A DNA stretch of 64,000 nt from Candidatus Heimdallarchaeum aukensis (GCA_021513695.1 CP084166.1:2368001-2432000), one strand, 5' to 3'; numbered from the stretch's first letter, positions 2,747 through 40,945 are shown. The notes: generated by a model from the letters alone, not told the origin. Program-made: numbers and translations.

Positions 2747-5293
2747 GTGAAATGTCCCGATTGTAGTAAAACCTTAACGATTGAAGAAAAAAGTCACACA
2801 TTTACTTTTCGTTGTCAATTTTGTGGATACTACTCAAAAATTGTTGGTGCTAAAAATGTTGAAGAAGCTTATAAGAAGACTGTGGAGAGGGCTATAGCTC
2901 AAAACAATATAATCCAAATATCAAAAAAAGAATCAGAACAACTAGTTAAAAGATTAACTCTTCAAGAGAAAATTAATCTGATTAAAAAAGGGAATGGTGA
3001 TCCTTCTAATCTCCCAAATCCCTTAGTTAAATTGTTAAGACATCCTGACTTAGAACCAGTTTACTATTTATTCTTGGAGCAAAAGTCTCCAGCTTTAGCT
3101 AAAGATTCCCTTTTTCTTCCATCTGAATTAAGTTCCTTTCTTAAGAAAAAGGGTTTTGTTCAATTATATGAATTTCAAAAACAATCGTTCAAAAAGATAA
3201 CAGAAGGAAAAAATGTAGTTATTGTAGCCCCAACTGGAACAGGTAAAACCGAGGCTTTCCTTTTTGCTATATTAACAGAAATTTGGGAATCTCATCCTCA
3301 TCCTCTATTACGAAATGGTCCTTATGCAATCTTTATCTATCCAAATAAAGCTTTAGCTAGAGATCAACAAAAGAAGATAAGCGAATATAGTTCAAAATTG
3401 GGAATAACCTGTGAAATTTTTGATGGCGATACTTCACAATCCAAAAGAAAAAAGATTTTGGAAAATCCTCCTGATATTTTAATAACAAATCCTGATATGC
3501 TACACTATCATATGCGAAAACCTAGTTTTAGGAGTCTGCTTTATCCGGTAAAGTTTGTAGTTATAGATGAAGTTCATGTGGCCGTAGGAGCATTTGGAAC
3601 AAATCTTTATTTTATAATTAGGCGATTAAGTCGATTGACAAAAAATAAATTACAATTTATTGCTGTTTCTGCCACAATAGGTAATGCCGTTGAGTTTACT
3701 TCTAAATTATTTAACAGCCCTTCTATGGATATAGTAGAAGTAACAGATGCACGAAAAGCACCTACTCATCTTATGATTGTGTATCCATATGGAACAAGCC
3801 AGTATACACTTACAGGAGACATTACTCGATTACTTGCTTCATCTGGTAGAAAAATCTTAGTTTTCCAGAATAGTCATAAAAATGCAGAAATTATTAATCT
3901 CCTTCTCAGCCAGAGAATGAAAATTGACAGCGCAGTGCATAGAGCGGGTCTCACAAAGAAATATAGAGCACAGGTAGAAAAAAGATTTAGAGATAATGAA
4001 CTAGATGTGTTAGTTTCAACGCCTACTTTAGAATTAGGAATAGATATTGGCAGTGTAGATTCTGTTGTATCTTCAATTGTTGACTTTACAAGGTTTACTC
4101 AACGATTAGGTAGAGCAGGAAGAAAAGGACAAGAATCAATAGGTATTCTTATTCTTAGGGACAATGACCCGATCTCTACCTATTATGCTTTTTACCCTGA
4201 AGACTATTTTGAAGACATAAGAAAAGGATTTATTGAACCTAAAAATGAACTCATTGCCTACTACCAAATATTATCCGCTGTGATGGATAAACCTCTAAAA
4301 GAAAATGAATTTCAAGAGTTTAAACACATTATTTTGAATCTTGTAAATGATGGTTTAGTTAAATTAGCACCAAAAGGAGAATTTCAAATAGCTGATTATT
4401 CAAAGGTTAGAAAAGTTTTGTCAGTATTTAACTTAAGAGGAATCGGTGATACTATCGTAATTGAAGATATCAATGGCAAAGAACTAGGTAGTCGTTCAAT
4501 GCCAATGGCTGCAAGAGAGTTACATCCGGGGGCAATATATTTACTAGGCGGAAAATATTATCGCTCTCTGTCCTTTCAGTATGATCCGAGATTAGGTCGT
4601 GGAAGAGTTAAAGTTCAAAATATTCCGCCGCTTAATAAAAAAACTACTGCTTTACGTTTTGCAATGCCTGAGATTATTAAAATTCATGAATTAAAGAAAA
4701 TTACTGGAACAGAAGCAATTTACTGTGATCTACGAATAACAGAAAATGTAATTGGTTATTCACTTTCTGATATCTTTACTGATGAGAATGTTGAAAACAT
4801 CCCGTTAAAAGAACCTATTCAGTATTCTTTTGTAACTAAAGGATTTATGTTTGTGATGCCAAAACCTCAAAAAATCTTCAGAAATTACCCCGATAAGCAT
4901 GAAGATGAACTAGCCACTGGCACATTTCACGCAATTGAACATGTTTTAATCGAATCAAGCGAAATGATAACTGGTGGAGGAAGTAATGAAATAGGAGGTA
5001 TTTCAATGGGACATTCTGGAGCAATTTTTGTGTATGATGGAGCTAAAGGAGGTTCTGGTCTTTCAAAGCTACTTTTTGACCGATTAGATGAAGCGCTTGA
5101 TCGTTCATTAAATATCCTTAAGAAATGTACATGTAAAACAATGGACGGTTGTCCTAGATGTACCTATAGCTATCAATGTGGAAACAATAATTTCCCACTG
5201 AACAAGTATGGTGCTATTGAATCTCTGACACTTGTTAAAAAATCTAAATTAAAAATCATTGAAGATGTGAGCGGTTATAATCCTCTGATCTAG
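2747..5293 (+). CDS. DEAD/DEAH-box helicase of the COG1205/YprA(MrfA)-like family. It has an N-terminal zinc ribbon and a C-terminal DUF1998 Cys-cluster domain.
   Basis: Walker A APTGTGKTEAF, motif II VVIDEVHV, SAT (SATIGN), motif VI RLGRAGRKG. N-terminal CPDC...CQFCGY. C-terminal CTCKTMDGCPRCTYSYQCG. Confidence 0.75.
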   Translation: MKCPDCSKTLTIEEKSHTFTFRCQFCGYYSKIVGAKNVEEAYKKTVERAIAQNNIIQISKKESEQLVKRLTLQEKINLIKKGNGDPSNLPNPLVKLLRHPDLEPVYYLFLEQKSPALAKDSLFLPSELSSFLKKKGFVQLYEFQKQSFKKITEGKNVVIVAPTGTGKTEAFLFAILTEIWESHPHPLLRNGPYAIFIYPNKALARDQQKKISEYSSKLGITCEIFDGDTSQSKRKKILENPPDILITNPDMLHYHMRKPSFRSLLYPVKFVVIDEVHVAVGAFGTNLYFIIRRLSRLTKNKLQFIAVSATIGNAVEFTSKLFNSPSMDIVEVTDARKAPTHLMIVYPYGTSQYTLTGDITRLLASSGRKILVFQNSHKNAEIINLLLSQRMKIDSAVHRAGLTKKYRAQVEKRFRDNELDVLVSTPTLELGIDIGSVDSVVSSIVDFTRFTQRLGRAGRKGQESIGILILRDNDPISTYYAFYPEDYFEDIRKGFIEPKNELIAYYQILSAVMDKPLKENEFQEFKHIILNLVNDGLVKLAPKGEFQIADYSKVRKVLSVFNLRGIGDTIVIEDINGKELGSRSMPMAARELHPGAIYLLGGKYYRSLSFQYDPRLGRGRVKVQNIPPLNKKTTALRFAMPEIIKIHELKKITGTEAIYCDLRITENVIGYSLSDIFTDENVENIPLKEPIQYSFVTKGFMFVMPKPQKIFRNYPDKHEDELATGTFHAIEHVLIESSEMITGGGSNEIGGISMGHSGAIFVYDGAKGGSGLSKLLFDRLDEALDRSLNILKKCTCKTMDGCPRCTYSYQCGNNNFPLNKYGAIESLTLVKKSKLKIIEDVSGYNPLI

Positions 5294-5912: not shown

Positions 5913-7433
5913 ATGGCAGATTTAAGACTTAAATACGGTACATCGCTAAATAAACAAAAAATGATGGAAATAACTATTGTAAGTATTATTGCACTATTTC
6001 TCTTTGTTTTGTCATTATATGTTAAAGATGCTTTTTGTTCTTGGTTCAATATGCAGAAGGGTGCAGGTTTTTACTGGTATTATGACCCCTCTAACCCTGA
6101 AGCTGTTTGGTACATAGAAGGATACGTTGATGCCTCATATTATTATCAACCTTATTTGTATGCATTTAGATATCAGAATTGGAATCCTTACTTGGGTGGA
6201 GAAGGACCATTGAATGGTTATGCTTATGGCCCCCTTTTTATATATGGTCTTTATTTTATTTCTCTTTTTGTTTCTATTGCAAATCCTTCTCTAACGAATT
6301 TTCAAGTGGTAATTGAATCAGTAAAATGGACACATATTGTTTTTGACTCATTATCGGTTGTTATGCTTTTTTTTATTGTTATCAATTTAGAAATAATGAA
6401 GTCAAAGAAATTTTCTAAATATTTAACTGGTGTTATAGCATCTGTTGTATATATTTTCATGCCCTTTAATCTGCTATACATTGATGCTTTAAGTCTTAAT
6501 ATTCCTCAAATGACTTTCTTTGTTCTTCTTGGAACATTTTTATTTAGAAAAGAAAAATATATTTTATCTTCATTTGCCATGACTTTGGGTTGGTTATCGA
6601 AACAGATGCCACTATTTATTGTTGTTCCTTGGTTTATAATACTCTGGAAAAAAGATGAAGACTTGAAAAAAGCACTTGTAGATTTCTTATTCCCTTTCTT
6701 TATTTTCACTTTGATATTCTCAATTCCTTGGTTAATATTGTCACCGGGAGGATATTTATTTAGAATATTTGGACCTGGAAAACCATTATCTATCGTTTCT
6801 TTGTCTTCCAAATATAATGGATATACTGTCACCTTGGCACATAGTTTTCTGAAATTAGGAAGCGAAACTTTAGCAAACATATATTTGTTTCTAAATAAGT
6901 ATATGATACCTTTTTTTGTTTTTTATATACTTACGTTATTAATTTGCTATTTTAATGCTTTAGATATATTTAATGACGAAAAACAATTTTACATTTATAA
7001 CACAGTAGTAATTCTTGTGTCTCATATATTCATTTCTAGAGGAATTTACAAATATTATGATGCATTTTTTTCTCCTTTCTTCATTCTTTTTCTTGTTTTA
7101 CTACTTTGGTCTTATTTTGACTTATGTAGATTCAACAATAGAACTTTATTGTATTCTTATTTTTTCGTTTCAATAATTTCCAGTTCAATTATTTTGTACT
7201 ATATTAATTGGGTAATAATCATCAAATCTAGATTCCTTCATCCTCTCTACTTGTTATTAATTTTTATTTTCATTTCTAGCTTTTTAGAAAGTAATTTTTA
7301 CTCGAGTCTAACCAAGTTTGAAAGCTACAGAATGATAATATTAGATATCAAAAAGATTTACTCTGATATAAAAAACTCTCTTCGAATACACAAAAAGGAA
7401 AAAGATCCGAAAATAAATCCGAATTTAGAATAA
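5913..7433 (+). CDS. Polytopic integral membrane protein, possibly a GT-C-fold glycosyltransferase (DUF2029-like)
   Basis: 506 aa, aromatic-rich, at least 10 predicted TM helices, N-terminal soluble loop rich in Y/W/P. Assignment by architecture only. Confidence 0.35.
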   Translation: MADLRLKYGTSLNKQKMMEITIVSIIALFLFVLSLYVKDAFCSWFNMQKGAGFYWYYDPSNPEAVWYIEGYVDASYYYQPYLYAFRYQNWNPYLGGEGPLNGYAYGPLFIYGLYFISLFVSIANPSLTNFQVVIESVKWTHIVFDSLSVVMLFFIVINLEIMKSKKFSKYLTGVIASVVYIFMPFNLLYIDALSLNIPQMTFFVLLGTFLFRKEKYILSSFAMTLGWLSKQMPLFIVVPWFIILWKKDEDLKKALVDFLFPFFIFTLIFSIPWLILSPGGYLFRIFGPGKPLSIVSLSSKYNGYTVTLAHSFLKLGSETLANIYLFLNKYMIPFFVFYILTLLICYFNALDIFNDEKQFYIYNTVVILVSHIFISRGIYKYYDAFFSPFFILFLVLLLWSYFDLCRFNNRTLLYSYFFVSIISSSIILYYINWVIIIKSRFLHPLYLLLIFIFISSFLESNFYSSLTKFESYRMIILDIKKIYSDIKNSLRIHKKEKDPKINPNLE

Positions 7434-7577
7434 AAATATGATTTTTCAATTATCATTTCTTAACTTTATACTTTCCCTTTTTTAAGAAATCTTCTATAAT
7501 AGCAATGTTTGACCTATATCAAAAAGAATTATAAAGTATAAAATTTCATTATTAGTAGTAAATAGTAAGGTATTCAA

Positions 7578-8138
7578 ATGAAGGAAACAAAAAATCGTGC
7601 TGTTTCTCCAGTTATAGGAACAATGCTAATGATTAGTTTAGTTATTGCGGCGAGTGTATTTGTGGCAATTTTTATTGGCAATATTAGAGTTCCTGCAATT
7701 GAAATTGGAGAAGAGACTCCCTCTCTTTATTCAGTAAACATTGATGTTATTTATTTTAACATAACTGATACTAATTCTAATGGACTAAATGATACACTTG
7801 TAGTAAAGTTTAATCTGGATTTAGATTCCCCAACAATTTATGTACAAGATATTGACATTTTGTTGCCTACAGGAAACTTACTTGATGATATAGTTCCATG
7901 GGTTATTATTGATTCAAATAGCTCTTGGAATTCAGACTTCTATGGATATTCTGTTTTGAATGGTAGTTTGAATGCTACATTTACTGTACAATGTTATGAC
8001 CTATCTAAGTCTGTAGGTGAAATTGCTCCAGGATATTCATTTTATTATTTAATTAAATATAACTATGTTTCTGTCAAAGGAAACCAATTGACTCTTATTT
8101 CTGATGTTTATCAATCAGAGTTAATAGAGACAAAATAA
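7578..8138 (+). CDS. Archaeal type IV pilin-like protein (class III signal peptide)
   Basis: N-terminus KNRAVSPVIGTMLMISLVIAASVF matches the archaeal prepilin/archaellin signal (R/K-G/A-V-S-P-V-I + hydrophobic helix). Secreted domain with N-glycosylation sequons. Confidence 0.65.
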   Translation: MKETKNRAVSPVIGTMLMISLVIAASVFVAIFIGNIRVPAIEIGEETPSLYSVNIDVIYFNITDTNSNGLNDTLVVKFNLDLDSPTIYVQDIDILLPTGNLLDDIVPWVIIDSNSSWNSDFYGYSVLNGSLNATFTVQCYDLSKSVGEIAPGYSFYYLIKYNYVSVKGNQLTLISDVYQSELIETK

Positions 8139-8214
8139 TATACAACATAATAATACATTTTTTTCTTTTTTCAAAACATTTTTTTAGATATTTGTGCTTA
8201 CTAATTTGAACATA

Positions 8215-8949
8215 ATGTCCCTTGAACCAAAACGAGCTTATAAAATAGTTTTAATTGGAGACCCAGAAGTAGGAAAAACTTCCATAAGAAGAAGATATAT
8301 GGGAAAAACGTTTAAAGGAGAATATTTGAAAACAATAGGTGCTGACTTTGCAGCACAAAAAGTAGAAATTGAAGATGAGGTCGTTTTATTAACAATATGG
8401 GATCTAGCTGGGCAAACTATCTTTCATGGAATGCGTTCTTCCTTTTACCAAGGATGTAAGTCTGCGTTAGTTGTTTTTGATGTAACAAATGTTGAAAGTT
8501 TGAACAATGTAGAAAAATGGACAGAAGAAGCTGTAACCTATGCAAAAAGTTCATTACAAGAGATTTATTTAATAGGCAATAAAATAGATTTGAAGAAAGA
8601 GAGAGTAGTTACAAAAGAACAAATAGACAAAAAAGTAAAACAATTGGAATCTTTAGTTAACTTTCCTATTAGAGTTTATGAAACATCTGCTCTTACAGGA
8701 GAAAATATCCAATCTTTATTTATGGATCTAAGTAGACGATTAATTATTAGTGATAACGTTAAATTTGAAGAAGAAATAGAAGCTAAACGTGCTCATGATG
8801 TTAAGAAAGAAAAAAGAAAAGAACCAGGTAAAGATGTTGATTATAAATCTAAAGATGACTTGAAAGAGATAATAAACCATATCGAGCTTCATGTTGAGAA
8901 AATAAATGACTTTATCAAATTATTGAAAAAACGATTAGATAAACTGTAA
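8215..8949 (+). CDS. Rab/Ras-like small GTPase with a charged, coiled C-terminal extension
   Basis: G1 GDPEVGKTS, switch I YLKTIGADF, G3 WDLAGQ, G4 GNKID, G5 ETSAL. ATG at 8215 is preferred over the GTG at 8194. K/E-rich C-tail, no CAAX. Confidence 0.8.
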   Translation: MSLEPKRAYKIVLIGDPEVGKTSIRRRYMGKTFKGEYLKTIGADFAAQKVEIEDEVVLLTIWDLAGQTIFHGMRSSFYQGCKSALVVFDVTNVESLNNVEKWTEEAVTYAKSSLQEIYLIGNKIDLKKERVVTKEQIDKKVKQLESLVNFPIRVYETSALTGENIQSLFMDLSRRLIISDNVKFEEEIEAKRAHDVKKEKRKEPGKDVDYKSKDDLKEIINHIELHVEKINDFIKLLKKRLDKL

Positions 8950-9030
8950 TTTTAAATCTCTTTACTTTGTAATAATCTTCAACAGTCATTCTTTTTTTAG
9001 AAAAAAGAAAAGATTTTGGATAAATTATTC

Positions 9031-10347
9031 TCATTCATCTAATTCTGTTAGTTTGACATATAGTCTCTTATAAAAATCTTGTACAGTTTGTAGAGATTTT
9101 AACTCAATATATTCATTTGCTCCATGAACATTTCCGCCAATTCCTCCAAATTCGATAGCAGGGATGTTCCTAGCGCTAAACCATCTTGAATCTGTAGCTC
9201 CTCCCATCTCAATTGTTTTTGTAGGTAATTCCAGTTCCTTAGCTACTTCAAGAGCTTTTTGAACTAATATTGAGGATTCAGACGTATTAACAGGTCCAAT
9301 ACTTCCTTCTGCTTTTATCTCTGCTTCAACATTGTGGTCTTTAAAGAAATCTTCAAAATATTTTTGAATTAAAGTATGATTATTACTCATAATTCTCAAG
9401 TCTAGTTGTACAAAGTAATGACCTTCTTTTTCAATAAAATAGTTGAAAGTAAGATTTATTCCATAATCACTATAATCTGATTCAATATCAACATTATCAA
9501 AGTCTCTTATAGAACGAAGAAATAAAGTTAAGTTTTTATCAATCTCAAAAGCTTCTCCTTCTTCATTTATCTTAACATAATCAATTGTAATTTCTGGTGG
9601 AATAACATTATTTTTTATGAAAACTCCGCTAATTGTTTGAACCAAGTCATCTTCTGAAAGTTTCTTAGATGCTGCAACAGCACAATGGATATCTAATTCC
9701 TTATTAAAGTATGCAGCATGCATAGTTCTATTTCCAGCTATTTCTGTTGTAAACTTCTCCGTATATAACTTCCCTTTTACTGTTTTCTTCTTTTTTGGAA
9801 TTTTTAAGTTTATAATGTACGGATTTCTACGTCTATTAATTATTTGTAAACCATTAGCATCACCATTTACTACATAATCTGGAACTAAATCATGTTTTTC
9901 TAATTGAGGAAGAAGTTCTCCTGCTCCAAAAGCTCCTCCTGATTCTTCGTCTAAATTAAAAGCAAAAATGATTGTGCCTTTCTCTTCTTTTGCAAAAAAT
10001 TCAGCCAGACTTAGCATTACAGCTACAGAACCCTTCATGTCTGCACTCCCTCGCCCATATCCTTTTTCGTCCCTTATTATAAAGGTAAATGGATCAGTTT
10101 CCCAATTTGGCCCCGGTGGTACAACATCACAGTGCCCTAAATATAACATCTTAGGGCTATCTCTTTTGATATAGGAAATAAGAGTCCAATAACCTTCTTT
10201 TACGTACATAACATTTTCGTATCCATATTCAGATAAGTAATTTCTTATAAAAATGAGTATGTCTTTACTAGGTTTGATTTTTTTTACAGGATTATTTATC
10301 GTATTGAATGAAACAAGTTTTTCAAGAATGGTTAAGTATGATTTCAT
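9031..10347 (-). CDS. M20 family metallopeptidase (ArgE/DapE/CPG2-like deacylase)
   Basis: GHCDVV, GRGSADMKG, EESGG and HGANEYIE metal-binding/catalytic motifs. Confidence 0.75.
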   Translation of the reverse strand: MKSYLTILEKLVSFNTINNPVKKIKPSKDILIFIRNYLSEYGYENVMYVKEGYWTLISYIKRDSPKMLYLGHCDVVPPGPNWETDPFTFIIRDEKGYGRGSADMKGSVAVMLSLAEFFAKEEKGTIIFAFNLDEESGGAFGAGELLPQLEKHDLVPDYVVNGDANGLQIINRRRNPYIINLKIPKKKKTVKGKLYTEKFTTEIAGNRTMHAAYFNKELDIHCAVAASKKLSEDDLVQTISGVFIKNNVIPPEITIDYVKINEEGEAFEIDKNLTLFLRSIRDFDNVDIESDYSDYGINLTFNYFIEKEGHYFVQLDLRIMSNNHTLIQKYFEDFFKDHNVEAEIKAEGSIGPVNTSESSILVQKALEVAKELELPTKTIEMGGATDSRWFSARNIPAIEFGGIGGNVHGANEYIELKSLQTVQDFYKRLYVKLTELDE

Positions 10348-10577
10348 AAATGGAACTTATTATGTAAATTTATTAGTTTTCTCCATCTTCTTGTGAACTT
10401 TTTAAACTACTCAAAATAATTTTCTCTAAAACCGGCAAAATATTAATTTCGGGAACATTGACTTATCTCTGGATAAAGTGAGAAAAAATGCGCATTTCGG
10501 ACTTTTCAGCACAATATTTTTATACTACTTTTTTTATCAATGAATTGCATACTACACGTGTGTAGGTGTTAAAAAAA

Positions 10578-11702
10578 ATGAATAAAAAAGGAATCTTTTT
10601 AATGGCATTGTTCTTACTTTCATTCCTTAGTGTAATGCCAACTAAGGCCGTAGTGGAAGATAAGAACACTGTTACCATTACATTGGGAACAGATGTCGCT
10701 GGTTATGTTGACAAAGGTGAACTCTATGTCGAAATTGACCGCGACGTCCTTCCAGATGGAAAAATCTTCTACACTGGAGATGAGCTATGGTTACACTTCT
10801 TCTATGATGTAGCCTATACAAACTTCTTCGGTGCAGCAGCTCCAAATGGAGGTTTCCAATGTGATGCATGGTTCTATGAAGAACCAGATGAAAACGGACT
10901 ATATAATGAAACAAGATTCAGTGGTATGCTAAACGGATATCTAGACGACTACGATTTAGGTCTAACAGATTTCGATCCTTACGACGGTAATACAACCCAA
11001 GAAATAACAATTACCTTAGAGGAAGGATGGCACACCTTTACTATTGTAGCTGCTGAATACATTTCAGACAACACTCATACCGAATTCCACTGGGAATGGG
11101 TAAAAGATCAAGTAAGCTTCTACGTTACTTCTGATACAACCTTAACAGAAGCTCCTGCAGTCGAATCATCCGGTAAGAAAGTCAAATTCGAATCAATCGC
11201 TAAAAACTCTGAAAACATGACCAACGGATTTGATTGGACAGATCCATGGACTGTTCGTCCAGTAGCTGAACCAGCTGCTTATTCAGACCTAGAAATATCA
11301 ACAAAGAAACTAGTAACCAAACTAACTGCTTATTACAACACTACATGGCAAGAATTAAACTTGACTGACTACGTTTGGGATACAGGTTTTGTTGATGAGT
11401 ATTCAATGGGTTATGGTGATGTTGCATGGTTCAATGCTGCTATAAACAACAGTTTAGTACAAGCAACTGAAGGAACTATTCCTTTGAACCTTGGAGTAAA
11501 CTACGTTGTATTTGCAGTAGTTGGATTCCACGCAGCTGATTTTGCAGCACTTTATGGAATACCCTTCCCAACAGTGCAATTCTCAAGCGTAATCTACAAG
11601 ATTGATGTAGTACCAGGACTAGGACCATCATACGGTATCCTTATAAGTGTCTCAATCTTTGGTCTAGTGGCTGCTTTAGGATTAAAGCGCTTCAGAAAAT
11701 AA
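10578..11702 (+). CDS. Secreted surface protein with a signal peptide and a C-terminal TM anchor plus basic tail
   Basis: N-terminus MNKKGIFLMALFLLSFLSVMPTKA. C-terminus GLVAALGLKRFRK. Atypical C-ending codon usage (TTC/TAC/AAC/GAC). Start chosen at the ATG 12 nt inside the track ORF. Confidence 0.55.
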   Translation: MNKKGIFLMALFLLSFLSVMPTKAVVEDKNTVTITLGTDVAGYVDKGELYVEIDRDVLPDGKIFYTGDELWLHFFYDVAYTNFFGAAAPNGGFQCDAWFYEEPDENGLYNETRFSGMLNGYLDDYDLGLTDFDPYDGNTTQEITITLEEGWHTFTIVAAEYISDNTHTEFHWEWVKDQVSFYVTSDTTLTEAPAVESSGKKVKFESIAKNSENMTNGFDWTDPWTVRPVAEPAAYSDLEISTKKLVTKLTAYYNTTWQELNLTDYVWDTGFVDEYSMGYGDVAWFNAAINNSLVQATEGTIPLNLGVNYVVFAVVGFHAADFAALYGIPFPTVQFSSVIYKIDVVPGLGPSYGILISVSIFGLVAALGLKRFRK

Positions 11703-11717
11703 TAAAGGTGAAAAAAA

Positions 11718-13667
11718 ATGAACAAGAAACTATTTATTGCCCTTTTTGTAGTCTCTACAATGTTGGTGTCTAGTGTATATTCTGCTTCAACAAGTAAGGC
11801 TGCAGTAGAACCAATCGCCACTTTAACCTATAAAACAAACGGTGGAGGCTTCCGTCCCGATTATGGTCTTTACATTGCTCAATACTTAAGTGAATTAGGT
11901 ATTAAAGTTAATGTAAAGGTTGAGGAATGGATAGTCTTCGTAGGTACACTGTTAGTTACCTACGACTTTGACCTCGCTTTTGTAGGTTTAGTAGGTGGTG
12001 GTGCAGACCCTGATCTAACAGGTGTATACAACGAAAATGGTTCTCTAAACATGTTTGGTATAAACACCAAAATGCCTTATGGAGCAGAAAATGAAGAAAT
12101 GATGAAGGAAGGAGTCCTCATCATGGATCTTGAAGAAAGACAACAACACTATTATGAATGGCAACAATTAATCATGGACAAAATCTTGCCAATGTTACCA
12201 TTCTTCAGTCCTCGTTCATATGTTGCTAATTGGGCTACATTAGACGGATATGACAATCGTTGGGGTATAATTGACTCCTTACCATACATGGAGTTCACAG
12301 AATTACACGAAGGTCAAACATCCACTGAAGAATTCTATGATTCTGACGCTAAATGGAAAGAATTGAACCCATTGTTGCAAGATGATGCATCAAGTTCTTA
12401 CATTTCATCCTTAGTCATGGAACCATTAATGCAAATGACTCCTGACTTTGAACCAGTCAAAACTGGTATAGTTATCGATTGGGAACAAGATGAAACCAAT
12501 GAACTCTTATACAAATTCACTCTACGTGATGATGTCTACTGGAACCCATCCTTCAACATCACAGGCAGAGATAGTAGCTCTGATCCATTAGTTGATGAAG
12601 ATGGAAACATCGTAGATCCCAGCATCTTAATGGTTGGTGATAAAGGAGAGTTCAGTGATGGAACAAACCAACAAGTAACTGCTAAAGACGCAGTATTCAC
12701 ATTACTTGCTTGGGCAAACCCAATCACCAGTGAAGACGCTGATGTATACAAATGGATTCATGACATATGGGTTGATCCTGAAGATGAATTATCCTTCTGG
12801 ATAGAAATCGATGGTGATCCTGACACTCCTGAACCAGAAAATTATGCACCCTTCTGGTCAGCAATGACTCCAAGATTACTACCAGAATTCTTCTTAAACA
12901 CAACCAACACAACTGTTACATACTCCTCTGGTGGAGTACCAATGGTTGGTTTAGGAGAAGGTATTCTTGATACTCCTCAATGGAAGACCTACAGTACTTC
13001 CGCATTTGGTTGTGGTAAGTACATGTTAGACTACTACGTTGAGAACTCAATTACAGTCTTACAAGCTTCTCCATTCTGGTTTGGTGTAGGAGCCATTGAC
13101 GGAACAGAACAAGATCTAGATATCAAAACCTTCAACATTCGTGTTATTCCAGATCAAACATCTGCATTAGCAGAATTCAAAGCTGGAAAACTCGATATCA
13201 TGGGTATGACTGCCTTCCCAGAGGAAAGAAAGGAGATGGAAACCGATCCTAGATTCGAAGTTCAATCAGCTCTAAGAAGCTATGTTAACTTCATGGGATT
13301 CAACCTCAGAAGACCATTCATCGGTGGAGACGACAACTATGTCTTCTTAACTGAACCTGGTTATGAGGAATATACCAAAGCTCTCGCTGTCAGAAAAGCT
13401 ATTGCATACGCAATCGACAGAGAAGAAATCAACAACGTTCTTCATGATGGTGAATACTTGATCTCTCACAGCGTTATTTATCCAGTACAAGCATTCTGGT
13501 ATTATAACGACATTATCAAGTACAACCATGATCTCGATACAGCTATTGCATGGCTTAAGAGAGCAGGAGTATATAAGGAAGCTGAAGTTACAACAACTCC
13601 ATTACCAATAATTGGTGTTGTTGCAGCAATCATGTCCTTTGTTTTACTCAGAAGGAAGAGAAACTAA
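11718..13667 (+). CDS. ABC-transporter family 5 (OppA/DppA-like) solute-binding protein homolog, C-terminally membrane anchored
   Basis: Signal peptide. SBP_bac_5-like segment KALAVRKAIAYAIDREEINNVL. C-terminal TM followed by RRKRN. Same atypical codon usage as the upstream gene. Confidence 0.55.
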   Translation: MNKKLFIALFVVSTMLVSSVYSASTSKAAVEPIATLTYKTNGGGFRPDYGLYIAQYLSELGIKVNVKVEEWIVFVGTLLVTYDFDLAFVGLVGGGADPDLTGVYNENGSLNMFGINTKMPYGAENEEMMKEGVLIMDLEERQQHYYEWQQLIMDKILPMLPFFSPRSYVANWATLDGYDNRWGIIDSLPYMEFTELHEGQTSTEEFYDSDAKWKELNPLLQDDASSSYISSLVMEPLMQMTPDFEPVKTGIVIDWEQDETNELLYKFTLRDDVYWNPSFNITGRDSSSDPLVDEDGNIVDPSILMVGDKGEFSDGTNQQVTAKDAVFTLLAWANPITSEDADVYKWIHDIWVDPEDELSFWIEIDGDPDTPEPENYAPFWSAMTPRLLPEFFLNTTNTTVTYSSGGVPMVGLGEGILDTPQWKTYSTSAFGCGKYMLDYYVENSITVLQASPFWFGVGAIDGTEQDLDIKTFNIRVIPDQTSALAEFKAGKLDIMGMTAFPEERKEMETDPRFEVQSALRSYVNFMGFNLRRPFIGGDDNYVFLTEPGYEEYTKALAVRKAIAYAIDREEINNVLHDGEYLISHSVIYPVQAFWYYNDIIKYNHDLDTAIAWLKRAGVYKEAEVTTTPLPIIGVVAAIMSFVLLRRKRN

Positions 13668-13785
13668 ATTTTCAAACATTTTCTTTTTTTCTATTTTTTT
13701 TTGAATTCAGTTCAGTTTTGACGATTGTTAAAATTTTTAACTGTTGCTGATTTTTGTTTCACATAAAAGGTCAAGTGTTTGTCTT

Positions 13786-39576: not shown

Positions 39577-40119
39577 TTACACTTTGTCTGTTATGTGGTC
39601 AACAATTCTGAAAAGCATAGCAAAAGGAGTTAAGGCTCCAAGAATGTAAACAAAGAAGTTAATAATTATAACCACTATTGGAACAGGAATGTATAGAGAT
39701 CCAATTGATAAACCGATCAGGATAACTAAGAATATGATAAATCCTAAAAGTATTTTTAAGGCTCCACCAAACGCACCAAAGAAACTAACCTTCTTAGAGA
39801 ATTTAGGTCCTCTTGTTGCAGTGAAAATAAAAGCTGCAAAACCACCGATCATTATGAACAAAAATCCTAAAATTATTAGTACAAAACCAATAATGCTTGC
39901 TACATTTCCGAAGAAAGCTGTTGGATCTAATAATACACTGAAGTCTCCTCCAATCAAAGCTAAAAGCGCTGTAAAGTCAAACAGGAAAAATCCTCCTACA
40001 ACTAACCCAAAACCAATTATGTTGTAAACTATTGATATTAGTATGTAGATGATTGCTCTTCCATACGATTCAAAAAAATTCGAGATTCCCGACTGTTCTT
40101 TATAAACCATTTTTTTCAC
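39577..40119 (-). CDS. Small polytopic membrane protein, hypothetical
   Basis: 180 aa with 4-5 hydrophobic helices (G/F/I rich). Confidence 0.4.
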   Translation of the reverse strand: MKKMVYKEQSGISNFFESYGRAIIYILISIVYNIIGFGLVVGGFFLFDFTALLALIGGDFSVLLDPTAFFGNVASIIGFVLIILGFLFIMIGGFAAFIFTATRGPKFSKKVSFFGAFGGALKILLGFIIFLVILIGLSIGSLYIPVPIVVIIINFFVYILGALTPFAMLFRIVDHITDKV

Positions 40120-40183: not shown

Positions 40184-40945
40184 GGTAGTGTCTAGTTTTC
40201 TTCCGACAAAATATTTGTGGGGACTCTAATAGTAAGATATGAAAACACAAAAACTATCTACTCTTTTTAAGAGATGCAGAGTCCCCAAAAAAATAATAAT
40301 AAAAGCTATTTATGAATATATTGGTTCAAAGAATGGTTTGAGGACAGTAGCATGGAAGAATGGTTTAACGCATCAAACATTATGGTATTGGGTAAAGAAG
40401 TTCAGGCTCTTTAGGGAAAGTTTACATAGAGTTGTAGCAGAGAGAGGGGGAATACCAGAGATTATAGTAGTAGATGAAACAGAGATTAGGACCTCTCAAG
40501 GCTCAATATATCTGTGGTTCGCGTTAGATCCTTACAACAAGACTTTACTGGGTTTTAGTATTACTAAAGGACGGAGTAATCTTGAATGTTTACTAACTTT
40601 CCGTTATTGGTTCAAATGTTGGGGTTTTAAGCCCCGTATTGTCGTTACAGATGCAGGAGTATGGTATCCTGTCTTACTTCGTCTCGGTATCAAAATCTCT
40701 GTTATCAAAGGTGGTTTACGCTCCTATATTGAACGTTTTAATGCTACTCTTAAGAGTTATCGTTGGTTTCATTCTATTCTCCACTGCACTTGTCCTATCC
40801 GTGCCGTCTATGGCTCTACTCATCTTTCTGGTTTCCTTACTCTCTTTATGCTCCATTATAATTTCGTTCGTCCTCATCAGAGCTTGGGACATCCTCCCCT
40901 TAGTTCCTTTTTACCTAGGAGGTGGTATAAAAACTAGACACTACC
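40184..40945 (+). mobile_element. Intact ~762 bp single-ORF insertion sequence (IS6/IS240-like DDE transposase) with 16 bp terminal inverted repeats and a 9 bp target-site duplication
   Basis: IR-L GGTAGTGTCTAGTTTT (~40184-40199). IR-R AAAACTAGACACTACC (~40930-40945). Flanking direct repeat CTTGGAGGA at ~40175-40183 and ~40946-40954. Internal GC higher than flanks. Confidence 0.8.
40239..40937 (+). CDS. DDE transposase (IS6/IS240-like, rve-type catalytic core)
   Basis: VVDETEI (D), VVTDAGVWY (D), SYIERFNATLK (E). C-terminal YNFVRPHQSLG integrase-core signature. Spacing resembles IS26 Tnp. Confidence 0.75.
   Translation: MKTQKLSTLFKRCRVPKKIIIKAIYEYIGSKNGLRTVAWKNGLTHQTLWYWVKKFRLFRESLHRVVAERGGIPEIIVVDETEIRTSQGSIYLWFALDPYNKTLLGFSITKGRSNLECLLTFRYWFKCWGFKPRIVVTDAGVWYPVLLRLGIKISVIKGGLRSYIERFNATLKSYRWFHSILHCTCPIRAVYGSTHLSGFLTLFMLHYNFVRPHQSLGHPPLSSFLPRRWYKN

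Follow-up and report, generated by a model that had tools for sequence, protein, structure and literature searches.

Two adjacent genes of Candidatus Heimdallarchaeum aukensis raise the question of why a pair of surface proteins should be encoded with a base composition and a codon usage that stand apart from those of the surrounding DNA: are the genes foreign, or are they under selection for translation, and what would their products do at the cell surface? The genes, here called g1 and g2, lie within positions 10566-13667 of a 64-kb stretch of DNA (64,000 nucleotides; GCA_021513695.1, CP084166.1:2368001-2432000), which we refer to in its entirety as the window and to which coordinates refer unless another locus is named. 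We think it likely that the two genes form a vertically inherited operon of the Heimdallarchaeaceae, one that would serve the very high expression of two membrane-tethered surface proteins making up a ligand-capturing layer. The codon-usage signal is in itself ordinary; the circular permutation of g2 and the operon-specific hairpin at the predicted 5' end, both missed by an earlier reading of this DNA from its sequence alone (the sequence-only reading), are the more interesting results.

Codon usage and descent of the gene pair

On exact counting, the GC content of 10566-13667 is 39.2%, as against 31.8% for the remaining window and 32.2% for the whole window, and this segment is the GC peak among all windows of 3.1 kb (mean 32.2%, standard deviation 1.9). 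The rise reported by the sequence-only reading is therefore real and marks the maximum of the window, but the figure of 42-45% given for it is too high, values of 41-42% being attained solely in single 300-base windows of the stretch. Broken down by codon position (1/2/3), GC amounts to 0.488/0.368/0.325 in the pair and 0.441/0.318/0.219 in the background; about half of the rise is accordingly due to positions 1 and 2, that is, to amino-acid composition.

The shift in codon usage was expressed as the NNC fraction, C/(C+T) at two-fold NNY codons plus ATY. This fraction is 0.544 in g1 and 0.550 in g2, against a mean of 0.247 (standard deviation 0.065, z ~4.5) in the 48 other open reading frames (ORFs) of the window that contain at least 35 such codons each, and when g1 and g2 are pooled and compared with the remaining window the odds ratio is 3.9 (Fisher p = 3e-29). 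The codons contribute unequally, with TTC (73% in the pair, 25% in the rest of the window), AAC (76% and 26%) and CAC (64% and 29%) ahead of TAC (47% and 22%), ATC (41% and 13%) and GAC (36% and 24%). Both parts of the pattern described by the sequence-only reading hold in both genes, the preference for C-ending two-fold codons as well as the A/T-rich four-fold sites: GC at the third position (GC3) of four-fold codons is 0.14-0.18, equal to background, as is G/(A+G) at Lys, Glu and Gln codons (0.19). Four-fold G-ending codons, together with CGA and CGG, are nearly missing from the pair, while GGT, CCA, ACC, GTC and CGT are increased.

Archaea decode two-fold NNY boxes with GNN anticodons alone, so that the C-ending codon is the Watson-Crick partner, and this mode of decoding underlies Sharp's S index. 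Because C-ending codons pair in this way with GNN, the direction of the shift in g1 and g2 is the one expected from decoding. Translational selection in the sense of Sharp et al. 2005 is reportedly recognized by a preference for C-ending codons at Phe, Tyr, Ile and Asn, and relative to the rest of the window g1 and g2 prefer the C-ending codon at all four. The GC maximum could also be read as the signature of a 3.1-kb segment acquired horizontally from a donor of higher GC content and not yet ameliorated, an explanation that would suit the fact that both genes encode surface proteins, a class often exchanged. Such an origin is difficult to reconcile with a shift that is restricted to NNY codons, NNG and four-fold GC3 being host-like. 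The genuine mobile genes of these genomes are GC-enriched across all codon classes; their rve integrases, unlike g1 and g2, have GC raised at NNG and four-fold sites too.

The history of the locus was followed in a comparative set of 83 related loci (1.29 Mb). More than 20 related genomes share the g1-g2 pair in synteny, with g2 identities of 94% down to 55%, the nearest homolog (94%) being that of Ca. Heimdallarchaeum endolithica PR6 (CP084167.1, locus L008). The shared gene order comprises an MrfA-type helicase, a Ras GTPase, a 500-aa membrane protein, a pilin-like protein, an M20 peptidase and a further Ras GTPase, followed by g1, the binding protein, ClC channels, MptE and PTPS. The codon bias recurs in syntenic orthologs as distant as 55% identity: the NNC fractions of g1 and g2 are 0.46 and 0.45 in Ca. 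H. endolithica, 0.47 and 0.51 in L002, 0.44 and 0.475 in L005, and 0.43 and 0.44 in L007, where the neighbouring genes lie mostly at 0.15-0.33. Binding-protein genes situated directly 3' of a g1 homolog (29 in all) have a mean NNC of 0.44, which is 0.19 above the background of their loci, whereas the mean for the unpaired paralogs of this family (74) is 0.27, which lies 0.016 above background; the bias therefore belongs to the locus and not to the protein family. The orthology of the 29 paired genes rests on synteny, since a neighbour-joining tree gave no clean g1-paired clade.

Synonymous divergence (dS) from Ca. H. endolithica is 0.37 for g1 and 0.31 for g2, as against 0.61-1.7 for 12 of the 13 flanking genes, so that it is about half that of the adjoining genes and is low where a foreign origin would lead one to expect it to be high. 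The pair keeps the same neighbourhood throughout the syntenic genomes, no mobile elements flank it, and the families of g1 and g2 are both restricted to Heimdall genomes; a horizontally acquired island would be recognized by a composition that is atypical in every codon class, by patchy distribution and by broken synteny, and g1 and g2 show none of these. We therefore consider horizontal acquisition very improbable. That the bias should reflect translational selection rather than foreign DNA, as the sequence-only reading had proposed, is well supported by the comparative evidence, namely the confinement of the shift to NNY codons, its recurrence in syntenic orthologs, its absence from unpaired paralogs and the halved dS.

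Several other genes of these genomes have composition or divergence of their own kind. The rve-type integrase/transposase genes (window 40239-40937; L008 15225-16163), with NNG of 0.38-0.40 and four-fold GC3 of 0.26-0.29, show how foreign DNA looks in these genomes; the L008 copy splits the pair of ClC genes, which stand uninterrupted in the window. The MrfA-type DEAD helicase gene (2747-5293) has a dS of 0.23 from Ca. H. endolithica, while surrounding genes have 0.6-1.0, and an NNC of 0.21; its low dS without codon bias makes recent recombination between lineages possible. The third highest NNC in the window (0.475) belongs to an ORF on the - strand (39577-40119) that encodes a highly hydrophobic protein of 180 aa; it has no match in Pfam or NCBIfam and may be another abundant membrane protein.

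The proteins encoded by g2 and g1

The sequence-only reading had likened the g2 product to family 5 solute-binding proteins, and this assignment is borne out by the Pfam model SBP_bac_5 (131 bits, E = 8e-38, cutoff 32.4), with a twist that had been overlooked, namely that the chain is circularly permuted. PF00496 is likewise carried by all 120 homologs among the matches listed. The chain order of g2 is not collinear with the family model, the two Pfam stretches being swapped: residues 43-179 match positions 416-542 of 556 in the Opp4A profile and residues 332-450 of AgaA, while residues 226-631 match HbpA 27-349 and Pfam positions 28-283 of 368. When the chain was re-joined in silico, with residues 201-625 followed by 29-200, it gave one Pfam stretch (28-354 of 368) at 142 bits, compared with 131 for the native order, and single PDB alignments ran straight across the artificial junction (HbpA 174-472). 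Since every canonical segment is present exactly once and in swapped order, the arrangement is that of a circular permutation; judged from these alignments, the new termini lie near canonical residue 350.

The predicted structure of g2 is consistent with this assignment. An AlphaFold2 (AF2) model has a predicted local distance difference test (pLDDT) score of 90.1 and a predicted template modelling (pTM) score of 0.83, and a Foldseek search with it returned 113 PDB matches at E <= 0.001; all 50 of those listed belong to cluster C, the top matches being DppA, NikZ, OppA, AppA, MoaA and similar proteins at probability 1.0. The predicted fold is the three-domain fold of cluster C. TM-scores reach only 0.3-0.5, a range to be expected when a sequential aligner is applied to a permuted chain.

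An exhaustive profile search with g2 yielded 159 clusters (50% identity) at E < 1e-30. The permuted order is collinear in the best 150 of the 159, the named ones are all Heimdall or Asgard, and single genomes hold many permuted binding-protein paralogs. The circular permutation of this OppA-type binding protein thus extends across the family, which is confined to Heimdall archaea and the genes of which seldom lie near those of transporters; a limited literature search found no earlier report of natural circular permutation in binding proteins of the OppA/DppA type. Pfam scans found no Opp/Dpp permease or ATPase genes near the g1-g2 pair in the window, and OppB/OppC permease genes lie 1 kb upstream of one permuted family member, in locus L073.

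That locus (6739-11827) encodes OppB-like and OppC-like permeases (BPD_transp_1, OppC_N), a 259-aa ORF and then the permuted binding protein; farther upstream lies an ORF that resembles an ABC-type ATPase, judging from a Walker A motif read in the sequence. Three larger proteins, P0176 (1772 aa), P0210 (1695 aa) and P0185 (1233 aa), contain two to four stretches that match the permuted binding-protein profile and may be tandem fusions that record the origin of the permutation. Two eukaryote-flavoured membrane enzymes adjoin binding-protein paralogs in Heimdall assemblies: a sterol-reductase-like membrane protein of the ERG4/ERG24 family (L080 3588-4715, E = 5e-70) and an Rce1-like CAAX protease (L082 4948-5844).

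The product of g1 is an orphan, with no match in either Pfam or NCBIfam. A search for its family gave 68 clusters with a lowest bit score of 309 and no matches in the twilight zone; about 20 of the 68 are named by source, every one of them Heimdall. More generally, the source-named homologs of g1 and g2 all come from Heimdallarchaeota/Heimdallarchaeaceae assemblies or from an "Asgard group archaeon". The C-terminal helix of g1 (aa ~350-374) is strikingly conserved, reading G-x-G-I-L-I-S-V-S-x-x-G-L-V before a run of K/R residues, and the protein has six N-x-S/T sequons where 2.6 are expected, those at N110 and N254 being conserved. The sequence-only reading had assigned signal peptides and basic C-terminal membrane anchors to both proteins, and each indeed begins with a signal-like segment and ends in a hydrophobic helix with basic residues. 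Matches to known sorting signals stay below their thresholds: Heimdall-CTERM (NF045529, cutoff 24) is matched at 18.5 bits by the tail of a distant homolog of g1 and gives no match with the tail of g1 in the window, and the g2 tail scores 17.7 bits against the NCBIfam model Loki-CTERM (NF033507), below the cutoff of 19.9. NCBIfam sorting-signal scans of the full-length g1 and g2 proteins found nothing.

Promoter and leader of the probable operon

The features collected in Table 1 allow g1 and g2 to be read as one operon, with a conserved promoter, a hairpin, Shine-Dalgarno sites and a probable oligo-T terminator. The promoter, a transcription factor B recognition element (BRE) and TATA box, is nearly invariant in two alignments of orthologous upstream regions (five and four sequences), and 22 of the 23 distinct loci have a TATA box of this type. 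When 20 g1 homologs are aligned, the start of g1 moves from GTG 10566, where the sequence-only reading had placed it, to ATG 10578 (MNKKG...), which is conserved in 19 homologs; GGTG is kept 6-11 nt before this ATG in all orthologous loci.

Table 1. Positions of the g1 and g2 genes and of their predicted signals and segments in the window
Feature	Position	Strand	Description
BRE-like CACAATA then TATA box TTTTTATA (10517-10524)	10510-10524	+	Putative archaeal promoter
Stem-loop UUGCAUAC-[UACAC]-GUGUGUAG	10545-10565	+	Minimum-free-energy fold, -6.6 kcal/mol
Shine-Dalgarno AGGTG of g1	10564-10568	+	9 nt before ATG; first two bases within the 3' arm of the stem
First of two adjacent ORFs	10566-11702	+	From ORF calling
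g1, 374-aa orphan surface protein	10578-11702	+	Predicted signal peptide aa 1-24 (ending ...TKA, followed by VVE); all-beta ectodomain
Shine-Dalgarno AGGTG of g2	11706-11710	+	Read from sequence; in the 15-nt gap after the TAATAA double stop of g1
Second of two adjacent ORFs	11718-13667	+	From ORF calling
g2, 649 aa, OppA/DppA-like family-5 binding protein of cluster C	11718-13667	+	Predicted signal peptide aa 1 to ~28
g2 aa ~30-200	11805-12317	+	Equivalent to C-terminal third of canonical family-5 binding proteins
g2 aa ~201-625	12318-13592	+	Equivalent to N-terminal two thirds of canonical family-5 binding proteins
g2 TTTPLP linker (six residues), transmembrane helix, RRKRN tail	13593-13664	+	AF2 helix 632-648
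Oligo-T tracts	13680-13702	+	Read from sequence; likely archaeal transcription terminator

A palindrome in the g1 leader had been proposed as an operator placed immediately upstream of the start codon. Its core, ACACGTGT, is present at 10554-10561 and occurs once in the window; given the start at ATG 10578, it lies 17-24 nt upstream of the coding sequence and does not overlap it. As an 8-mer palindrome it is within chance, one of this type being found in 17 of 100 shuffles, and the relative with 94% identity is the only one to keep the core. The palindrome corresponds to the loop plus the 3' arm of a stem-loop (Table 1), the arms of which are conserved far more widely than the core: a stem of the form (G/A)CUUAC...GUA(A/G)G(C/U) is found in 22 distinct orthologous leaders, and the hairpin in the window is homologous to the GCUUAC...GUAAGC hairpin of 22 loci, in which the loop varies from 4 to 11 nt. 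Of the alignment cells, 85.6% are paired, a share that drops to 24-44% on sliding the partner column, and RNAalifold recovers the same stem independently. Substitutions in the stem preserve pairing: pair 18-36 is G-C in nine sequences, G-U in eight and A-U in four, and pair 20-34 is U-A in 11, U-G in six and A-U in two.

The first base of the stem follows the end of the TATA box by 20-22 nt in 22 of 23 loci, a fixed spacing that places the stem at the expected transcription start, predicted here at ~10546-10547. A site at this position invites the alternative that the inverted repeat (arms CTTAC/GTAAG) is the operator of a dimeric repressor, since archaeal repressors typically act at the start site, and the conservation of the arm sequence itself, along with covariation statistics that are moderate, would agree with such a function. 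Against it, G-U or U-G pairs stand at 17 sequence positions of the six core pairs of the stem, by which RNA pairing is kept and the symmetry of the DNA is broken, and a fixed dimer would be poorly served by a spacer whose length ranges from 4 to 11 nt or more. The motif is moreover essentially limited to this operon (21 matches upstream of g1, with ~25 other sites scattered across the 1.29 Mb), which leaves no regulon, and no conserved regulator gene is adjacent. Given also the poor conservation of the core and its place within the hairpin, we regard an operator as unlikely; the element is most plausibly a stem-loop at the predicted 5' end of the mRNA with a stabilizing role. An Rfam search of the leader gave no family and two hits at chance level only.

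Three duplicate gene pairs with low codon bias (L001, L022 and L041) are without the hairpin motif. A second pair of a g1-like and a binding-protein gene in Ca. H. endolithica (L001/L009 8812-12100), situated in another neighbourhood and with 78% identity to g2, retains little of the codon bias (0.24/0.36) and has neither the conserved promoter nor the hairpin.

The gene content of the remaining window is in keeping with an Asgard archaeon and includes genes for two GTPases of the Ras/Arf type, an archaetidylinositol-phosphate synthase-like protein and an MptE-like protein. Relative to the more distant L002, L005 and L007, the M20 peptidase gene is inverted and swapped with a Ras-family GTPase gene (8194-10347) in the window and in Ca. 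H. endolithica, a rearrangement directly upstream of the operon promoter. The 506-aa protein encoded at 5913-7433, with about nine predicted membrane helices and no match in Pfam or NCBIfam, is conserved in position upstream of the operon across all syntenic loci.

A candidate ligand-capturing layer and its relatives

The properties of the locus can be combined into a scheme in which the strong, conserved BRE/TATA promoter would start the mRNA at ~10546-10547, at the foot of a stem-loop of 6-8 bp that would shield the 5' end and so prolong the life of the mRNA. Both cistrons would be translated from canonical Shine-Dalgarno sites, and the transcript would end at the oligo-T tracts. Selection for efficient translation would have produced the C-ending Phe, Tyr, Asn, His, Ile and Asp codons, the loss of four-fold G-ending codons and the slower synonymous change. 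The permuted OppA/DppA-type protein encoded by g2 would be kept near the membrane by its C-terminal helix, and g1, a putative Heimdall-specific beta-sandwich protein, would be tethered likewise, the two giving a dense ligand-capturing layer on the cell surface that may supply an ABC importer of the Opp type, encoded at another site, with substrate; being abundant, this layer could form much of the amorphous protein coat of cultured Heimdallarchaeaceae. The ligand would probably be peptides, because cultured relatives are peptidotrophic. The actual level of expression, the transcription start, the function of the hairpin, the ligand, the partnership of g1 and g2 and their identity with the coat are all elements that we infer.

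A number of observations weigh against this scheme. Pfam scans found no ribosomal-protein, elongation-factor or thermosome genes in the 48 window ORFs, nor did a motif scan of the 83 loci, translated in six frames, find such genes; the remaining genes of high NNC in these loci, which comprise an Asx-tRNA synthetase, an SSB-like protein, a glyoxalase, small proteins of unknown function and a transposase, are suggestive only and lend weak support. The bias is also weaker in some orthologs, such as those of L003 (NNC 0.31/0.37). The structure model of g1 is of medium confidence only. Covariation in the hairpin is modest, its score being reached by 18 of 500 shuffles, and the sequence of the stem is itself conserved, which keeps a DNA-level site as an alternative. 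Importer genes were found near just one of 98 full-length family copies (by a crude neighbour screen and Pfam checks), and the equivalent of the Asp of DppA that binds the peptide amino group (Asp408) is variable across the family (SSPD, ASPD, GDPD and others), g2 having GGGADPD at the G-D-P-D site of DppA as mapped by sequence motif only. With importers unlinked and this Asp not conserved, both transport and a peptide ligand are uncertain.

What is known of cultured Asgard archaea gives the scheme a setting. The proteome of Promethearchaeum syntrophicum is led by far by a binding protein of family 5, which has a normalized spectral abundance factor (NSAF) of 6.0 as against 0.84 for the second and is the main N-glycoprotein; S-layer proteins went undetected (PMC11284389). 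The Hodarchaeales isolates HC1 and SC1 likewise have peptide/nickel binding proteins of high NSAF that are N-glycosylated (10.1101/2025.02.26.640444). 'Ca. Y. umbracryptum', the one member of the Heimdallarchaeaceae in culture, is covered by an amorphous coat of protein that lines its internal vesicles as well (10.1101/2025.11.06.686947). That g1 and g2 are dominant envelope proteins, as the sequence-only reading suggested, is plausible only by analogy with these cases, by which the two would also be the obvious genomic candidates for the coat of the Heimdallarchaeaceae.

The apparently very high expression of the pair, the C-terminal anchors on both proteins, the conserved sequons and the absence of linked transporter genes could equally suit a regular S-layer, composed of a lattice protein and an anchor, in which g2 would not be a working binding protein. 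We think this quite improbable. The coat of the cultured member of the Heimdallarchaeaceae is amorphous and without a lattice (10.1101/2025.11.06.686947), the matches of g1 are generic, and putative S-layer proteins of Hodarchaeales are described as pore-forming homotetramers, a comparison with g1 and g2 made by description only; g2, for its part, retains a complete and confidently modelled binding-protein fold. A bolder form of the ligand-capturing layer, which we put forward tentatively and with more doubt than belief, is that g1 and g2 are the main material of the non-crystalline coat on cells and internal vesicles, the permutation having re-oriented g2 for packing with an Ig-like partner and the hairpin securing expression.

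The interest of such candidates goes beyond the locus. Asgard archaea are the closest known prokaryotic relatives of eukaryotes. Cultured members seem to be without a classical S-layer, and for the coat of their flexible, protrusion-forming membranes the operon supplies two concrete, genome-encoded candidates. Since in the one cultured member of the Heimdallarchaeaceae the coat also lines intracellular vesicles, a coat protein would mark membrane traffic, and such a marker would bear on the origin of eukaryotic endomembranes; if the bolder proposal is true, a nutrient-binding protein was recruited as cell envelope in these relatives of eukaryotes. The permuted g2 family further constitutes a natural experiment in the tolerance of a fold to re-wiring, useful for biosensor design, and the conserved hairpin is a candidate archaeal mRNA-stability element, a poorly documented class.

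Among known systems, g2 most directly recalls the cluster C/SBP_bac_5 proteins (E. coli DppA and OppA, NikA/NikZ and HbpA), with which it shares a sequence match, a predicted three-domain fold and an extracytoplasmic location. It differs from them in its permuted chain, in an ectodomain that is ~80 aa longer, in being tethered by a C-terminal helix rather than existing as a free periplasmic protein or lipoprotein, in the position of its gene outside an opp/dpp operon and in the variability within its family of the residue equivalent to DppA Asp408. The leader invites comparison with the 5'-terminal stabilizing stem-loops of bacteria, such as the E. coli ompA leader and the B. subtilis aprE and ermC leaders: in each case a short stem-loop lies 0-2 nt from the (here predicted) 5' end, next to a strong Shine-Dalgarno sequence and ahead of a gene for an abundant envelope protein. 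The archaeal transcript, the start of which is predicted, has no sequence relation to these leaders and belongs to no Rfam family.

The closest parallels for the surface proteins come from other archaea. According to Albers, Elferink and colleagues, the oligopeptide-class binding proteins of Sulfolobus/Saccharolobus are reportedly anchored at the C-terminus, glycosylated and abundant on the cell surface. Like g2, these are said to be of the family-5 type with a C-terminal transmembrane anchor, theirs being combined with a bacterial-type signal peptide; they reportedly differ from g2 in their canonical domain order, a long Ser/Thr-rich linker and adjoining permease/ATPase genes. Nearest in lineage are DSAG12_03090 of P. 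syntrophicum MK-D1 and the proteins of the Hodarchaeales isolates HC1 and SC1, which are Asgard family-5 proteins like g2, to which they are likened by family and not by sequence, and which carry N-glycans and come first or among the first in protein abundance (PMC11284389; 10.1101/2025.02.26.640444).

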